Virus record (IMG/VR): IMGVR_UViG_2718217709_000003
DNA length: 53,807 nt
Strand: one strand, 5' to 3'
Origin: a virus
Taxonomy: Duplodnaviria > Heunggongvirae > Uroviricota > Caudoviricetes
The first letter of the stretch is position 1; every line of letters starts with the position of its first letter. The translations under genes were made by a program, and so were the position numbers. Positions 4,287 to 51,575 of this stretch are shown here, piece by piece. Under the pieces are notes generated by a model that saw only the letters and a program-made list of their open reading frames with translations, was not told the origin of the DNA and ran no database searches.

Positions 4287-6124
4287 TGAAAGTAACTGCA
4301 AACGGTAAGACATTTACCTTCCCTGATGGTACGAGCACGGAAGATATTGGAGCCGCCATTGATGATTATTTTGCTGGTCAGGTTGTTCAGCAACAAACAG
4401 TTAATCAGGCCAATAATGCACCAGTACGTGAAGAACCATCATTGATGCAACAAGCTGGCGATTGGCTCACTGGTGGTCAAAGTGCAGGGCAAATTGCAGA
4501 ACAGGCTGGTCGTGGTCTGGTAAACATACCATTTGACGTATTGCAGGGTGGCGCAAGTCTGATTAATGCAATCAGTCAGGGGCTTGGTGGGCCAAAAGTT
4601 TTGGATGATGTTTATCGTCCAGTAGACAAACCGACAGACCCATACGCACAAGCCGGTGAAACAATTGGTGGGTATTTAGTTCCAGGAGTTGGAACGGCAG
4701 GAAGCATGGCTATTGGATCGCTGGCAGAGGCCGCAAATCAGAAAGGCGATTTCGCACAAAATGCAGCTAAAAATGCCGGAGTTAACCTTGCCGCTCAGGG
4801 TGTTCTTTCCGCAGCAGCAAAGGGAATAGGGCGTGGAATAACGGCTATAAAAGGTGATATTGCGCCAGAAGTGGCGAAGAAAATTGCCACATCAGAATCG
4901 ATGGGCGTGACACCAATGACATCTGATGTTATCCCGCCGAAAAATGCTTTCACTCGCGGCCTTACTCAGGATGCCGAGGGGGCTTTGCTCGGGACGGGCT
5001 CAAAGCGAGCAGAGCAATATGCAACGCGGAGTAAGCTGGTAAGCAATTATTTTGACCGTTTTGGTGAGTACAACCCTGATGATGTGGTGAAATCTCTGAC
5101 CACCACGTTAAGGGGGCGGAAGGATGCCGCTGGCGCTGTTATCAATGACGTCACCAATAAAATGGGTAATGCCGCAGTTGATACCACAAATACCATGAAT
5201 GCTCTGAATACAGCGATCGCAAGACAGGAACGGCTTGGGACGTCTGCCAATCAAAGCCTGCTTACATCCTTGCGTAACCTACGTGAAGAATTAGCAAACC
5301 CTGCAACTGATTTGGATGTTACGTTTGATCTCTTGCGTCAGCACAGAACAGCATTTAGATCTAATGTTCAGGGAGATGCTATGGTCTTCCCCAACCAGGC
5401 AAAAGCAGCTACCAATATGGTAGAGAATGCAATGTCAAAAGACCTTCGTAACGCAGTTGCTAAAAACCTCGGTGCATCAGACGCAGCAAAATACCTTAAA
5501 GCAAATTCCGATTATGCAAACGTTTATAATAAGGTGCTTAATAAAAACATTGCCAACAAGCTCAACAAGGCAAGCAGTGAAGCCAGTCCTGAACTTATAA
5601 ATACCGTTGTATTAAGCAGAAAACCATCTGACGTGAAACGAATCTGGAGCGCACTGGATGATAAGGGGAAAGATGCTATGCGTGCAGCTTACGTCAGCAA
5701 AATAGCGGAAAAGACCGGGGACTCTCCAGCCAAGTTCATCACTGAAGTTAATAAGCTGAAATCTCAGTCAGGCGGTGAAATTTACAACACTATTTTTTCT
5801 GGAAAGCACATGAAAGAGCTTGATGCTCTTCATGAAGTTCTACAGCAAACAGCAAGGTCAGACACCGCAAATGTAGTAACTCAGACGGGGCAATCGCAAG
5901 CCAACAGGATAAGGACGATTGGCGCAACTGCGACCCTTGGCGTATCAATGGGGCTTGAGGCTGGTTTTGGTGCAATGATGCGCTTGTATGAGTCCAAAGC
6001 AGCAAGGAATATGCTTCTTCGTTTGGCAAACACCAAAGCAGGAACACCAGCCTATGAAAGAGCGATAAATAACGCTGCGAATGCCATCAGACCGCTGTTT
6101 GCTACTGAGGCAACACAGCAGTAA
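4283..6124 (+). CDS. Hypothetical protein (613 aa); possibly a P22 gp16-like ejection protein
   Basis: Long Ala/Gly-rich ORF, about the size of P22 gp16, in the matching position before the immI region; assignment is positional. Confidence 0.4.
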
Positions 6125-6148
6125 CGTATGGGAAATTGGATTCAATCG

Positions 6149-6538
6149 CTAACATTTTCTTTTTACTTTTCCAACAAAAGCTTTGGTTGAATCCATATTT
6201 CCATAACCGGAAATGGTTTTTGACATTAAAACTGTTCCAGTAGGATGTATTACCCATGAGTCGATAACGCGTTGAGTTTCGCCATTCGCGCCGATTCCTA
6301 TGATGGAGTTTTTAGACAATGCTTTGTAAGCCATGCCGCCCGCATCTGTCCCAGAATATGTGATGCTGGCATCTTCACCGTTTGTCTTAATGATGAATGT
6401 TCCACTAAAACCATCTTCTTCCGGATGGAAATTATTTCGTTCTGAATAGCTTATTCCGCGCATATCTCCAACGACCCAGCACTCTGCTGTAGCCCCAAAA
6501 GATATGAATAAGAACATAGCAGTAAGAAATTGCTTCAC
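6149..6538 (-). CDS. Secreted protein of unknown function (129 aa, N-terminal signal peptide)
   Basis: N-terminus MKQFLTAMFLFISFGATA looks like a Sec signal peptide; sits where P22-like phages carry sieA. Confidence 0.5.
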   Translation of the reverse strand: MKQFLTAMFLFISFGATAECWVVGDMRGISYSERNNFHPEEDGFSGTFIIKTNGEDASITYSGTDAGGMAYKALSKNSIIGIGANGETQRVIDSWVIHPTGTVLMSKTISGYGNMDSTKAFVGKVKRKC

Positions 6539-6655
6539 GCCAACCTCCTTAGTTTTGAGCAGGATACCATGAAAAAAGTAAACATCTTTTGCCTACTTCA
6601 CATTTGAATGGTTTGTCATTAGGATGTTTCCGGTTTTTTAAATATGGAAATTGAT

Positions 6656-46965: not shown

Positions 46966-47886
46966 ATGGGACGTACCAAATCACCGATTAACACTGAACT
47001 GAACGCCGATGTACCGCTGTCGGATGATCTCAACGTCAGCCTGAATGCCATGACACAGCATCGCATGGAGATCATGCAGCAGTTTGGTGATGGACTGCCT
47101 TATGAACGTGAACGCATCGTTCACGAAGCACGTTTTTATATGGCGCAGAGTGCTGAATCTATGTTGGAAGCGGGTAAGCGGCTGATCATCTTAAAAGAAA
47201 ATGAACCGCATGGTGATTTCACAAATATTCTGGAAAACGACCTCGGATTAGCACCACAGGTAGCTCGTCGCATGATGCAGGCCAGCGTGAAATTTCTCGG
47301 CAATGGAGATGAACAGCCAAAACGCTCAGCGCTGAGCGTTTTGGGAAAAACCAAGTTATATGAACTGATGGTTCTGGATGACGAAGAACTCGACGCATTA
47401 GCTGATGGTGGAACCGTCGCCGGTGCAACGCTTGATGATATTGATCGCATGACCAGCCGCGAACTGAAGGCCGCCCTGCGTGAAGCGCGCGAAACCAACG
47501 CAGCTCAGCAACAGGTGCTTGCCGGAAAGGACGAAAAAATCAACGAACTGGCCACAAAACTGGAGAAGAAATCGCGCCTGCAACCTCCGCCGCCAGACGA
47601 AGAACTGAAAAAATTGCGGGCGGAAGTGACGGCATTAGCGGTTGAGGCCGAATCGGCTATCGCCGTCCGGCTGTCCAGTGTTTTTGAGACCCTGTGTGAA
47701 TACTGCACCAAAAACATGATCGATACCCCCAGAGATTTCATGGCCGGTCTGGTCTGCCAGATTGAACGCAGTGTTCATGCATTACGTGAGACGTTTGACC
47801 TTGAGGCCGCTCCATCGGGTAACGATGCCCCCGCCTGGCTGACCGAACCGGAACCTGAAATCAACCGACCGGAGGATATGCAGTAA
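46966..47886 (+). CDS. Hypothetical early protein (306 aa)
   Basis: Coiled-coil-rich ORF in the early operon with SD AAGGAG upstream; no transposase-like motifs. Confidence 0.5.
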   Translation: MGRTKSPINTELNADVPLSDDLNVSLNAMTQHRMEIMQQFGDGLPYERERIVHEARFYMAQSAESMLEAGKRLIILKENEPHGDFTNILENDLGLAPQVARRMMQASVKFLGNGDEQPKRSALSVLGKTKLYELMVLDDEELDALADGGTVAGATLDDIDRMTSRELKAALREARETNAAQQQVLAGKDEKINELATKLEKKSRLQPPPPDEELKKLRAEVTALAVEAESAIAVRLSSVFETLCEYCTKNMIDTPRDFMAGLVCQIERSVHALRETFDLEAAPSGNDAPAWLTEPEPEINRPEDMQ

Positions 47887-48278
47887 TGAATACGAATAAC
47901 ACACAAAATACCCTGATGGACAGCCCGGAGGCACTGGGGCACGCACTGTGTAATCTGCTGCCGGAGATGGTGCAGGGTTTCCGCGTGGTGACCCCTTCCG
48001 GTGAAATCTGCGTACCCGCACAGGAGACGCACCCGTTTGTACTGACGATGATTACGCTATCAGGTAACAGCCGGAAATTAAAAGCCTGCCGAATATCTGC
48101 CAGATACCTTTTTGCCCGCGCCTTTTTTAAGAACGTCAGGCCGGGGATCACAATTGGTGTTATTGCCGGACGCGAACAGGTTGAAAAATACATGTCAGGT
48201 GCATGGTGGAATAACGACCCTGTCATTGCTGCCCGTAATATTCATATCAGTTGGGGGGATATTCAGAATGACGGCTGA
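47886..48278 (+). CDS. Hypothetical early protein (130 aa)
   Basis: ORF coupled to the preceding gene. Confidence 0.4.
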   Translation: MNTNNTQNTLMDSPEALGHALCNLLPEMVQGFRVVTPSGEICVPAQETHPFVLTMITLSGNSRKLKACRISARYLFARAFFKNVRPGITIGVIAGREQVEKYMSGAWWNNDPVIAARNIHISWGDIQNDG

Positions 48279-49295: not shown

Positions 49296-49340
49296 TTCCT
49301 GCTTGTTAAAGTCCTTTCAAAAATCTCCTTATTGTATAAA

Positions 49341-49371
49341 AGCACGGTAGACCCCTTACCGTGCTTTTTTT
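49341..49371 (+). terminator. Rho-independent terminator after the mor-like gene
   Basis: agcacggta-gacccct-taccgtgct stem followed by ttttttt. Confidence 0.65.
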
Positions 49372-49409
49372 ATGCTCTCTCTTTAGTATTCAGGATGCAG
49401 GGAGAAAAT

Positions 49410-50042
49410 ATGTTTGACGTTTCGTTGTTAAATCTGCCATGGGCAACACTGGTGACCCTGACCAGTGGCTATATTGGGTATTTTATTGCGAATGTGGGAC
49501 TGAAGGATCACCACAAGCCCATTGAGGTGACTTTTTCTTCGCTGATTTTTGGCCTGACAGCAATGATGGCTTACCAGGCTGTTATGTGGGCAGGTCTGAA
49601 TGCCTGGCTGGCAACACCACCAGCACTTCTGTGTGCCGTTACATGCGGTGCGTGGTGGCGCAGGTACGGTCGCAAATGGATGTACAGATTACTGTGGAAT
49701 AATGATATTTCATGGTCTGACGATACCAGCTCAGCATGGCAGGCAATGTTTGATCAAACAGGCTTCAGCGTTACCGAGGTCAGAGTGATTCTTCGCGATG
49801 GTTCCGGTATGATGTCACGGCTGCCAGGGAACTTTGAAGAGTGGCCTAACGGTCCGTTTACCCTGGGGAATAAAGGCGATATGGTTCTTTACGTCACGCA
49901 CAGCAGCCCTTCAGGCAGTAACGAATGGGAAGAGTATAAAGGCGTGGTTGATAAGTACTGGGGAGCTCTGGCAACCTATATTCCAGCAGATCAGATTGCC
50001 AGAGTGGAGATCAGGCGCGTTCGTGCAACGAACGATGAATGA
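49410..50042 (+). CDS. Membrane protein of unknown function (about 211 aa) at the prophage edge
   Basis: Three predicted N-terminal TM helices followed by a soluble Trp-rich domain; SD AGGGAG upstream; alternative start at 49395. Confidence 0.55.
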   Translation: MFDVSLLNLPWATLVTLTSGYIGYFIANVGLKDHHKPIEVTFSSLIFGLTAMMAYQAVMWAGLNAWLATPPALLCAVTCGAWWRRYGRKWMYRLLWNNDISWSDDTSSAWQAMFDQTGFSVTEVRVILRDGSGMMSRLPGNFEEWPNGPFTLGNKGDMVLYVTHSSPSGSNEWEEYKGVVDKYWGALATYIPADQIARVEIRRVRATNDE

Positions 50043-50553
50043 TGTTTATTTTTTCCCTGGGGCAGGGGCTGCCGGCATAGTGGTTTTATTGGCAGAGGAA
50101 GACGATTCTCCTTTTCTACCGGAATCGCGCTCGAACGTCACGATGTGCTTGCTTTTGGGCTTTTCTGAGTAATCCAGGCTATCATGCTTATTGTTTTGAG
50201 TAGTCATTGGAATCATCCTTTTTGTTGCGGGTCATGTTTCAGCAAACTCGATTCTAAGTTGCCAGGAAGGATGATTTCAATGCCCGACTTATCTATCGTA
50301 TAGCGGAAAAGAATTTCAGTTCTGTTCACCAGAACCCATGTTAACCCACTCCAATTCGTTATTTATCTCACGGATCCCCCTTCATTTATCTCATGTCTGA
50401 TCAGAAATGAAGCCTGTTGAGTGAGATTCACCGGTTCTGGTGCAGAAGCTGCAGATGGCGCAGGGTAAGGACATCTTCTCTTGCCTGCTTAATACAGGAC
50501 AACAGTGCTGTTTCTGTGGTTAATGGCACTATACCCTGCATCACTGCATTGTC

Positions 50554-50748
50554 TTACAGCAACTGGTGAGGGCTGGCATAAGTTGCCGGTGTTTCGGTAG
50601 AGTCACGGTCATCCACCACGCGGAGTGAATAACCTTTTTCAGCGGCCTTATTAATCAGTTCAGTGATATTAACACCATCAATGTCAACGACAATGTGCCC
50701 CATATCCAGCGCCTGTACGTTAACGCTGTCGGCTTCCAGTGTCATCAT
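50554..50748 (-). CDS. yeeW: YeeW-like protein (64 aa)
   Basis: Small ORF whose start overlaps the end of the cbtA reading frame, as in CP4-44. Confidence 0.55.
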   Translation of the reverse strand: MMTLEADSVNVQALDMGHIVVDIDGVNITELINKAAEKGYSLRVVDDRDSTETPATYASPHQLL

Positions 50749-51118
50749 TTCGCCTCCGGATACTTACCCAGGGTAATGTTATTTACCGTTCTGTAATTGT
50801 CGCGGGTCATCAGGCCGGTCGCCCTGCGAGCCCGGAGGATATCGATGCTGTTTATTAACTGAGAGCGGGTACAGGCGCTGAATCCCGGCTGGTCGGTAGC
50901 ACCAGCGCGTATTTTTCCACGAGAAAGTTCACCGCATCACACAGTGAAATGCCTGCCTCAATATGCTGCTCAATCACACGTTCATCGGCAAAAGGTGTGT
51001 CATTCAGTGTGAGGCCATAGTGCTGGTCCAGCAGTCGGGACAGCAGTATCTGCCAGATTTCAACAGGAGACGGGCGAGAACTGGTCGCCTGCCCGGGTAA
51101 TACAGGTAATGTTTTCAT
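50745..51118 (-). pseudogene. cbtA: cbtA (yeeV) toxin gene with an internal frameshift
   Basis: N-terminal 71 aa match CbtA; after ...VEKYALV the conserved C-terminus ([46 protein letters not shown]) is encoded in a different frame; shift near 50895-50902. Confidence 0.7.
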
Positions 51119-51206: not shown

Positions 51207-51575
51207 TTAATTTTTCATTTCGGGCGTCGGATAAACAGCCAGATAAACGTAACCACAACTGCTGAGGGTATCGGCTTTGCAGGTCAGCCCTTTTGCATAC
51301 AGCGTGACGGTATGCTGATGGCGGGGATTCAGTTCACCGCTGGTGAGCATGAGTTCCAGTTGTTTCATCAGCAGCGGAAAGGCCTGGTCCAGGTGGTACG
51401 CATCTGCATCGCTGAACAGGCCTCTGATACCGGCGCGGTCGGCAAGGTAATGCAACCGGTTACCCTCCTGCACCAGACGTGCCCCGAAACAGGGCGTCAC
51501 GGTGCAGGGCAGCCCCCACCAGGGGCGGTCGTGATTGTCGTCGGGAAGTGTTGTCCCGGGGAGTGTGTCTGACAC
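51207..51575 (-). CDS. cbeA: CbeA (YeeU) antitoxin, 122 aa
   Basis: MSDTLPGTTLPDDNHDRPWWGLPCTVTPCFGARLVQEGNRLHYLADRAGI... matches CbeA from memory. Confidence 0.8.
   Translation of the reverse strand: MSDTLPGTTLPDDNHDRPWWGLPCTVTPCFGARLVQEGNRLHYLADRAGIRGLFSDADAYHLDQAFPLLMKQLELMLTSGELNPRHQHTVTLYAKGLTCKADTLSSCGYVYLAVYPTPEMKN

Follow-up and report, generated by a model that had tools for sequence, protein, structure and literature searches.

The DNA analysed here (hereafter the window) is the IMG/VR virus record IMGVR_UViG_2718217709_000003, a stretch of 53,807 nucleotides (nt) assigned to the Caudoviricetes that carries a Mu-like prophage. Close to the end of this prophage, downstream of genes encoding GemA (PF06252, 1e-40) and Mor (PF08765, 1e-43), lie two convergent genes. 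The first, X210 (49410-50042, plus strand), encodes a membrane protein of 210 amino acids (aa), and the second, sP (50046-50207, minus strand), a micro-protein of 53 aa that is annotated in RefSeq; the genes are arranged tail-to-tail with their stop codons 3 nt apart. Together they constitute a mobile accessory cassette of about 1 kb.

An original prediction, made from the sequence of the window, had flagged a single gene for a 211-aa protein at 49341-50042, with its own ribosome-binding site. An open reading frame (ORF) terminating at 50042 does exist on the plus strand, and it is preceded by a Shine-Dalgarno sequence, GGGAG, which can be read directly from the plus strand at 49400-49404, 5 nt before the ATG at 49410. 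This ATG is the likely start of X210, and RefSeq has the identical start in Escherichia coli AR_0085; position 49341 falls within the terminator that follows mor, and the product is one residue shorter than had been claimed. X210 is a real gene and not a chance ORF, because it matches PHROG 12870 over its full length (E 6.3e-134, residues 1-210 on profile positions 1-210), its family comprises 522 clusters at 50% identity, nearly all of 200-215 aa, and an identical DNA sequence is present in 129 of 5426 complete E. coli genomes.

Homologues of X210 (72 matches in a database clustered at 90%, with identities down to 34%) include distant members that also match PHROG 12870. The family lies at the edge of Pfam DUF6338 (PF19865) when compared by profile hidden Markov model (HMM). 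X210 of the window has no match to this or any other Pfam model at E up to 1, and 20 of 35 homologues touch it weakly, at 24-28.5 bits against a gathering threshold of 26.5 bits. When five homologues were scanned singly, P0050 alone passed (28.5 bits), the rest scoring 23.9-25.9. The matches span positions 54-144 of the 205 in the model, from the second transmembrane (TM) helix to the first beta-strands, and some family members have been named "DUF6338 family protein" by NCBI. Neither PHROG 12870 nor DUF6338 has an assigned function. The remote-homology search called for by the original prediction thus placed the protein in a family, with a borderline second assignment, and returned no characterised homologue. 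A sequence search of the PDB gave no informative match, and a phage genome collection yielded one cyanophage by tblastn and no match by megablast. Homology to a structural or lysis protein of phages, which had been named as evidence against the prediction, was likewise not found; the nearest approach is a resemblance to LydA-type holins with three TM helices in BFVD, which is non-significant (E above 0.02, TM-score below 0.4). A holin identity for X210 was rejected on this ground, and also because the phage has a separate lysis cassette and because X210, at 210 aa, has a folded cytoplasmic domain.

The protein was expected to have three N-terminal TM helices and a Trp-rich soluble domain, and both are present in an AlphaFold2 model (mean predicted local distance difference test score 86, from a 35-sequence alignment). 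Helices span residues 11-27, 37-60 and 65-97, in agreement with Kyte-Doolittle segments, and are followed by a beta-domain at 119-205. Hydropathy and charge (the positive-inside rule) predict an N-out topology. The C-terminal domain would accordingly be cytoplasmic, because the first loop (KDHHK) and the segment after the third helix (RRYGRKW) are both placed inside by charge. There are 12 Trp residues overall, and the 113-residue C-terminal domain is rich in aromatic residues (5 Trp, or 4.4%, with 4 Tyr and 4 Phe). The most conserved regions are the first TM helix (NLPWATLVTLxSGYxGYFIANVG), the HHK loop, a linker (ISWSDxTxSAW) and two stretches of the beta-domain (GDxxLYVTH and TYIPADQI). Conserved aromatic residues include W110, Y161, W184 and Y190. 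X210 is thus predicted to be an inner-membrane protein in which three TM helices carry a Trp/Tyr-rich, LSm/SH3-like beta-barrel (about residues 98-205) in the cytoplasm. Structural scores of this domain against the Sm/LSm fold are modest and come without sequence similarity. The same is true of the peptide-binding LSm domains of LSm14 and EDC3, with which it was compared, and the X210 domain differs from these in being tethered to the membrane. Mechanosensitive channels of the MscS type also have a unit of three TM helices and an Sm-like beta-domain, to which X210 is neither a sequence nor a structural match.

The flagged gene had been taken to be solitary and to be the last one before a CP4-like island. 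In fact X210 is followed by the conserved sP gene and then by about 200 bp of phage end. The sP product matches PHROG 15726 (E 1e-41), has an isoelectric point of 9.7 and a grand average of hydropathy of -1.4, and ends in ...MPAAPAPGKK. Among six enterobacterial copies, substitutions at codon positions 1, 2 and 3 number 159, 104 and 251, and this skew towards the third position indicates that sP is coding. Peptides of this type are 33-60 aa long, hydrophilic and of low complexity, with a polar N-terminus. They share a core, [ST]-x-x-P-[KQR], in which the Pro is nearly invariant and which is often repeated (DYSENPK, SYSPKT, NFVPQT, TSxQPKA), and a C-terminal PxxP-type stretch followed by mostly basic residues (PAAPAPGKK, PPLPLKKK, PPPSPKKK, PPPPKK, PPPPPPSRK). 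Ribosome stalling at polyproline was considered as a universal feature of sP and was discarded, as the enterobacterial tails lack PPP.

Independent evidence that such peptides are made comes from a proteogenomic study of Pseudomonas stutzeri, in which three unannotated proline-rich micro-proteins were detected by mass spectrometry, with 44-114 peptide-spectrum matches, beside a DUF6338 gene (PMC10433244). Their C-termini read ...PPPPKK, ...PPPPPKRDSK and ...PPPPPKKGG, and the authors thought them species-specific (PMC10433244); by sequence comparison they align with the sP family. The sP gene occurs in tandem in some loci, with three copies in Sphingobium (L150, 2008-2339, minus strand) and two in Synechococcus phage Ssp-JY41, where they span the record ends (L232 and L231). 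In P. stutzeri CP036186 (2666728-2667116) the three micro-protein genes and the DUF6338 gene are reported to share one strand (PMC10433244).

The pairing of the two genes was assessed on 33 distinct X210 proteins with at least 200 nt of downstream sequence. An sP HMM match (E up to 1e-3) was found downstream and convergent in 25 of these loci, and none was found at the three control positions (downstream on the same strand, and upstream on either strand). Five further sP genes were recognised by eye, as a short PGTSxQPKAPPP variant or as a copy with a non-ATG start. Overall, sP accompanies X210 in about 30 of 34 distinct loci, and its stop codon lies within -20 to +43 nt of that of X210. Convergent sP genes are present in enterobacterial Mu-like prophages, in HK97-like siphoviruses, in E. 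coli P2-like phages, in Synechococcus phage Ssp-JY41, in a conjugative element, in Sphingobium, and in chromosomes of Bradyrhizobium, Afipia, Devosia and Rhizobium. In Mu-like relatives without the cassette, sP and X210 are absent jointly. We found no earlier account in which the two genes are recognised as a mobile and conserved cassette, and the P. stutzeri report is the sole literature trace of the pairing.

The accessory status of the pair is evident from its distribution among relatives. IMG/VR, in which contig ends frequently fall on predicted prophage borders, was searched with Mor; this gave 40 Mu-like loci in which mor is followed by 800 nt or more of sequence, and 14 of them carry the cassette. 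In about 20 of the 26 loci that lack it, a homologous phage end follows some 170 nt after mor, so that the pair is an insertion of about 1 kb between mor and the phage end; five loci of this search have the classical Mu-like order, with late genes after mor. In the Mu-like loci retrieved through X210, the gene always follows mor directly. The base composition of the cassette carries no signal of foreign DNA. The original prediction that the gene is a moron expressed in the lysogen stands with respect to accessory insertion; independent expression in the lysogen is only partly supported, as the transcription signals indicate.

A hairpin terminator follows mor (49338-49368), with a stem of 13 base pairs, a GC-rich loop, a run of seven T residues and a folding energy of about -16.7 kcal/mol. 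A strong terminator between the regulatory genes and X210 had indeed been foreseen. In related loci its stem differs in sequence while pairing is kept (GCACGGT/ACCGTGC, GCGCAA/TTGCGC, CACAGTG/CACTGTG). Read on the minus strand, the hairpin folds just as well and is followed by UUUUAU, so that antisense transcripts from the sP gene might be terminated here too. The terminator had further been taken as a sign of independent expression in the lysogen. It does not show this: a Mor-box-like element lies between mor and the hairpin, and a scan of the plus strand between mor and X210 found no sigma-70 promoter; hexamers embedded in the hairpin (TAGACC-17-TATGCT, and TGGATA-17-TATTCT in relatives) have 8 of 12 matches and fall below the scan threshold. 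The sP gene is preceded on the minus strand by a sigma-70-type promoter (50251-50280; TTGAAA-18 nt-TAGAAT, 10 of 12 matches). Its hexamers and spacing are identical in a diverged locus (L022) whose X210 is only 63% identical, and its appearance suggests constitutive expression. There is no terminator between the X210 and sP stop codons, and with these 3 nt apart the two transcripts must overlap.

The Mor-box-like element (49304-49324, plus strand; TGTTAA-AGTCCT-TTCAAAAAT) lies just after the mor stop codon and is a candidate activator site for a promoter of the middle/late type that would serve X210. It was scored with a position weight matrix (PWM) built from 18 distinct boxes of holin promoters in related prophages, and reaches 8.8 bits, compared with 95th and 99th percentiles of 4.2 and 11.5 in background stretches of 220 nt. 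The best PWM site falls at the equivalent position after the mor stop in every Mu-like lineage (16.4 in L017, 16.5 in L027 and 14.0 in L058). The boxes of L027 and L055 have TATTAT and TATCAT downstream of them at the canonical spacing of 18 nt; in the window, L017 and L058 the canonical -10 and start site lie within the hairpin, the -10 of the window being CACGGT (49343-49348) and its predicted start lying at about 49350-49356. A composite motif, CTTAMCGYGCTTT-N19-GTATTNNNGATGC, common to the right arm of the hairpin and the holin promoter, had been tried and was rejected: the right half that is invariant in the footprint of 51 sequences, TTTAAAATCC, is missing there, and the PWM scan that replaced the motif identified the better-placed box upstream of the hairpin.

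The layout of the holin promoter, taken from 51 distinct upstream regions, is yTTAA-N6-TTTAAAATCC, a spacer of 18 nt, a weak -10 (xAxxCT) and then GTCTCC. Four strong boxes are present on the minus strand of the window, at 43486-43466 (32 bits), 30174-30154 (20), 36091-36071 (18) and 23823-23803 (16), with 18-nt spacing to GATGCT, CATACT, CAAACT and AATACT. All four read TCTTAA-N6-TTTAA(A/T)ATC and are intergenic, ahead of the lysis operon, the head protease/scaffold operon and two tail operons. These late sites share one architecture, which parallels the four late promoters of Mu, and their footprint is a candidate for the Mor box of BcepMu-type enterobacterial prophages.

In Mu, the dyad bound by Mor is centred at -43.5. 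The Mor-dependent middle promoter Pm, which has no -35 element, follows mor immediately and shares sequence with a predicted terminator, a design that is found again downstream of gene C. Pm and the X210 region share the position after mor, a TTAA-type half-site dyad with a 6-bp spacer, the overlap with a terminator hairpin, and uncharacterised TM proteins as the first genes (the Mu middle operon encodes gp18, gp19 with four TM helices, gp20 with one, and C). Unlike in Mu, the genes themselves are others, there is no C gene, and the candidate Mor site lies upstream of the hairpin with the predicted start inside it. In Symbiopectobacterium (L055, about 4923-4960) the box overlaps the left arm of a short terminator hairpin (GCACT...AGTGC) with a T-run, as it does in Mu Pm (L041, 874-902); in the lineage of the window the hairpin downstream of the box is longer. 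The layouts in L055, Mu and the window look like variants of one device that combines a terminator with an activator-dependent promoter, and we found no earlier account of the arrangement of Mor box and terminator seen here. A Mor-driven transcript would start inside the hairpin, lack its left arm and so escape termination, and read-through from the early operon would be stopped. A Mor-box-like element that follows mor, matches the four late promoters of this phage and mirrors Mu Pm suggests Mor-dependent transcription of X210, which is thus probably at least partly expressed in lytic development.

Outside Mu-like prophages, X210 occurs in a variety of settings. In an HK97-like siphovirus it lies between the genes for the head-tail adaptor and head closure, and in further siphoviruses among tail genes. 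In an E. coli P2-like phage it is inserted between those for the portal protein gpQ and the replication protein gpA, 24 nt after ogr; the gpQ-gpA interval of P2 is the hotspot for the defence genes old and tin (PMC9122126). Two papers on P2 hotspots do not name the family, the first in its supplementary material and the second in its body text. X210 directly follows a gene for a late activator in two unrelated types of phage (L233/L234, 6719-7630; L030, about 5850-6607), ogr in P2-like phages and mor in Mu-like ones. On a chromosome of Rhizobium leguminosarum it has an Avs2/Aga-like gene on one side and Shosta (ShosA, 1.4e-70) on the other, with AriA of PARIS (4.9e-41) adjoining. In Sphingobium it is 3.5 kb from IetA (5.7e-68) and an S8 peptidase, with an integrase and a transposase nearby, and in a conjugative element it adjoins a fusion of a type II methyltransferase with Mrr. 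Copies in Bradyrhizobium and Allosphingosinicella lie in small islets of hypothetical genes, one of them with a pair encoding a PIN-like DUF4411 protein and an M78 peptidase. All matches to PADLOC models belong to neighbours of X210 in these other genomes, and not to X210 or sP. Within this small sample, X210 recurs beside known defence systems and in the P2 gpA-gpQ hotspot, a distribution which, by association, is that expected of defence or exclusion cargo.

On this genomic association we favour, tentatively, the reading that X210 and sP together serve to exclude other phages or to abort their infections, and that phages and other mobile elements carry the pair as cargo. In a lysogen, sP would be made from its own sigma-70 promoter, and its transcript would run antisense through X210 up to the bidirectional hairpin. 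The proline tail of sP may dock on the beta-barrel of X210: the two are a plausible receptor-ligand pair, because they are predicted to share a compartment and because class II SH3 ligands have the form PxxPx[KR]. Restrained in this manner at the level of both protein and antisense RNA, X210 would be held low or inactive, and would act at the inner membrane once its transcription rose or sP was lost. In the Mu-like phage the rise could come from the Mor-box promoter that initiates inside the terminator, and the loss of sP could follow an incoming phage. The released protein might block DNA entry or, as a ring-forming oligomer of the LSm type, open the membrane. Barrels of the Sm type are commonly hexameric or heptameric rings, and a ring of X210 would bundle 18-21 TM helices. 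In its full form, namely a widespread, previously unrecognised two-component system of mobile elements in which a disordered PxxP-tailed micro-protein gates an LSm/SH3-like member of the DUF6338 superfamily, anchored in the membrane, so that phage infection is excluded or aborted, with a promoter inside the terminator in Mu-like phages so that only activator-dependent transcripts escape, the proposal is possible and on balance doubtful.

Several observations weigh against a role in defence. Among the 5027 models of PADLOC-DB v2, none matched X210 or sP at E up to 1, and NCBIfam gave no match. A literature search on the protein accession and DUF6338 returned the P. stutzeri paper and no functional test of the family. 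The contexts examined outside Mu-like prophages number about 15 independent cases, of which a handful are non-phage, and the association with defence genes is circumstantial. The sP HMM was built from the same loci that were later scored with it. X210 appears intact without sP in L030, in L025 and in two copies from insect symbionts, which also argues against an obligate toxin-antitoxin relation. Lastly, a lytic role would be equally compatible with the Mor-type promoter and with the orientation of X210, which in all the phage contexts examined is that of the late operons.

Such a lytic role would make X210 a Mor-activated middle or late membrane protein for phage development, concerned, for instance, with lysis timing as a holin- or antiholin-like accessory or with a late change of the membrane, and sP its timer or antagonist, much as holin T of phage T4 is paired with RI and LydA of P1 with LydB. 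The Mor-box-like element at a conserved place between mor and X210, with canonical 18-nt spacing and a good -10 in L027 and L055, would suit this role, as would the precedent of Mu, in which Pm overlaps the terminator after mor and the middle operon starts with uncharacterised TM proteins. X210 is moreover co-oriented with the late operons in all siphovirus insertions, its position 24 nt after ogr in P2-like phages is of the same kind, and it bears the weak three-helix resemblance to LydA-type holins described above. However, the phage has a holin-SLT-spanin cassette of its own, at 42.3-43.4 kb and under a separate late promoter. X210 is also dispensable, being absent from most close relatives, and the pair is not confined to phages, with copies in defence islands of chromosomes and on a conjugative element. 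In the window the cassette is intact in a defective prophage that has lost its transposase, the box is a moderate match, and the holin matches did not reach significance. We therefore regard a primarily lytic function as unlikely.

Two further explanations concern sP more directly. The pair might be an addiction or stabilisation module, with X210 as a membrane toxin and sP as its labile antidote, selected because it penalises loss of the element and not because it blocks phages. The tight linkage of the two genes over many kinds of mobile elements would agree with this, as would the small size and disorder of sP, which it shares with many antitoxins, and in a P2-like phage-plasmid the pair adjoins the ParM/StbB partition genes. 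The convergent overlap recalls the type I systems of prophages, in which the antisense partner overlaps the 3' end of the toxin gene. Nevertheless, several loci keep X210 intact without sP, the genes are convergent and do not form an autoregulated operon, sP has no DNA-binding domain, and a Pfam match to the membrane toxin CptA was obtained in three members only, at E about 0.04, which is noise from the TM segments; such a module appears quite improbable. Alternatively, sP itself may be the effector, a peptide comparable to the proline-rich antimicrobials that target the ribosome or DnaK (Y-x-P-R/K-T motifs), with X210 as its exporter, immunity protein or anchor, or the pair may bring about a different lysogenic conversion, for instance by supplying a channel or tolerance of stress. 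The repeated [SN][YHF]xP[KRQT]T motifs and polyproline tail of sP are in keeping with an effector, and so is its tandem amplification in Sphingobium and P. stutzeri (three copies each) and in the cyanophage (two copies). The P. stutzeri study, which did not cover membrane fractions, found the sP-type proteins to be abundant and did not detect the DUF6338 protein; DUF6338 genes, its authors add, are present in biosynthetic clusters as well (PMC10433244). Against this, sP has no signal or leader peptide, X210 has no signature of a transporter or ATPase, enterobacterial sPs have no polyproline runs (that of the window ends in PAAPAPGKK), and the contexts are defence islands and phage hotspots, not bacteriocin clusters. 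We consider an effector role for sP, or another conversion trait, to have a low probability.

Comparison with known systems revealed no homology of X210-sP to any characterised one in the searches described. A close parallel is Pstu14405_RS12030 of P. stutzeri, a DUF6338 protein that, like X210, is a membrane protein accompanied by small proline-rich proteins (SEP1, SEP5 and SEP2), which are known to be translated (PMC10433244). The DUF6338 model, with 205 positions, is close in length to X210, and the HMM match is weak. The small genes of P. stutzeri are reported to lie on the same strand, whereas sP genes are convergent, an arrangement conserved from Enterobacteria to Cyanobacteria. Among exclusion proteins, SieA of phage P22 is likewise an accessory inner-membrane protein of a prophage with three predicted TM helices (PMC10883804). 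It blocks DNA entry and has a functionally important cytoplasmic segment (PMC10883804). SieA differs in being 162 aa long and in having neither a beta-barrel domain nor a partner micro-protein. No link between SieA types A-C and X210 was found through Pfam, PHROG or NCBIfam, and the SieA motif FxRYPxEAxxFNK is absent from X210, so that the likeness is one of analogy only. Pairs of a cytoplasmic and a multi-TM protein by which prophages exclude other phages also include RexA/RexB of lambda and gp30/gp31 of mycobacteriophage Butters. These too are analogues without homology, and differ from X210-sP in that the 33-60-aa sP is disordered and the genes are convergent rather than co-transcribed.

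The Mu-like prophage itself ends at 50361-50403, with two direct ATTTATCTCA repeats (50361-50370 and 50384-50393), which are putative transposase sites, and a terminal ...TGATCA; a search for an inverted copy of the last 24 nt did not reveal the other end, and a 5-bp target duplication was not located either. The CP4-like island starts at 50404, since the copy of this prophage in E. coli AR_0085 remains similar only up to 50403. The prophage in the window is defective: relative to the intact copy of AR_0085 it is missing about 5.7 kb (L001, 13030-18748), a segment that encodes Gam, the DDE transposase A and the B/ExeA-like ATPase and holds several small genes. At the junction, near 48047-48050, the loss has created a fusion ORF (47886-48278) whose N-terminus matches phrog_5446 and whose C-terminus matches phrog_3681. 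The same prophage is inserted in the CP4-like island in the window (from 50404, with a DUF5983 gene at 50554-50748) and inside a P2-like prophage in AR_0085 (L001, 21104 onward), which is consistent with the near-random transposition of Mu-type phages. On the minus strand of the island, the 87-aa ORF at 50855-51118 looks like a toxin of the CbtA/YeeV type, possibly truncated, and the 122-aa ORF at 51207-51575 like an antitoxin of the CbeA/YeeU type. Beyond them lie ORFs that, from their translations, we take to be RadC-like, antirestriction-like and DUF932-like.

The accessory genes of prophages are a major source of anti-phage systems still to be discovered, and annotation routinely overlooks micro-proteins. 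The gene at the end of this Mu-like prophage, whose product would have passed for a hypothetical membrane protein, belongs to a conserved pair, and there is a real prospect that the cassette is a new defence system. For DUF6338 and PHROG 12870, the pairing provides a testable partner and a testable contact, that between the PxxP tail and the LSm/SH3-like barrel, and the arrangement of Mor box and hairpin suggests a compact combination of a terminator with an activator-dependent promoter. The pairing also links the orphan micro-proteins of P. stutzeri, verified by mass spectrometry, to a broad family. If the proposal is true, DUF6338 would be given a function, and these seemingly species-specific proteins would prove to belong to a family that is conserved.

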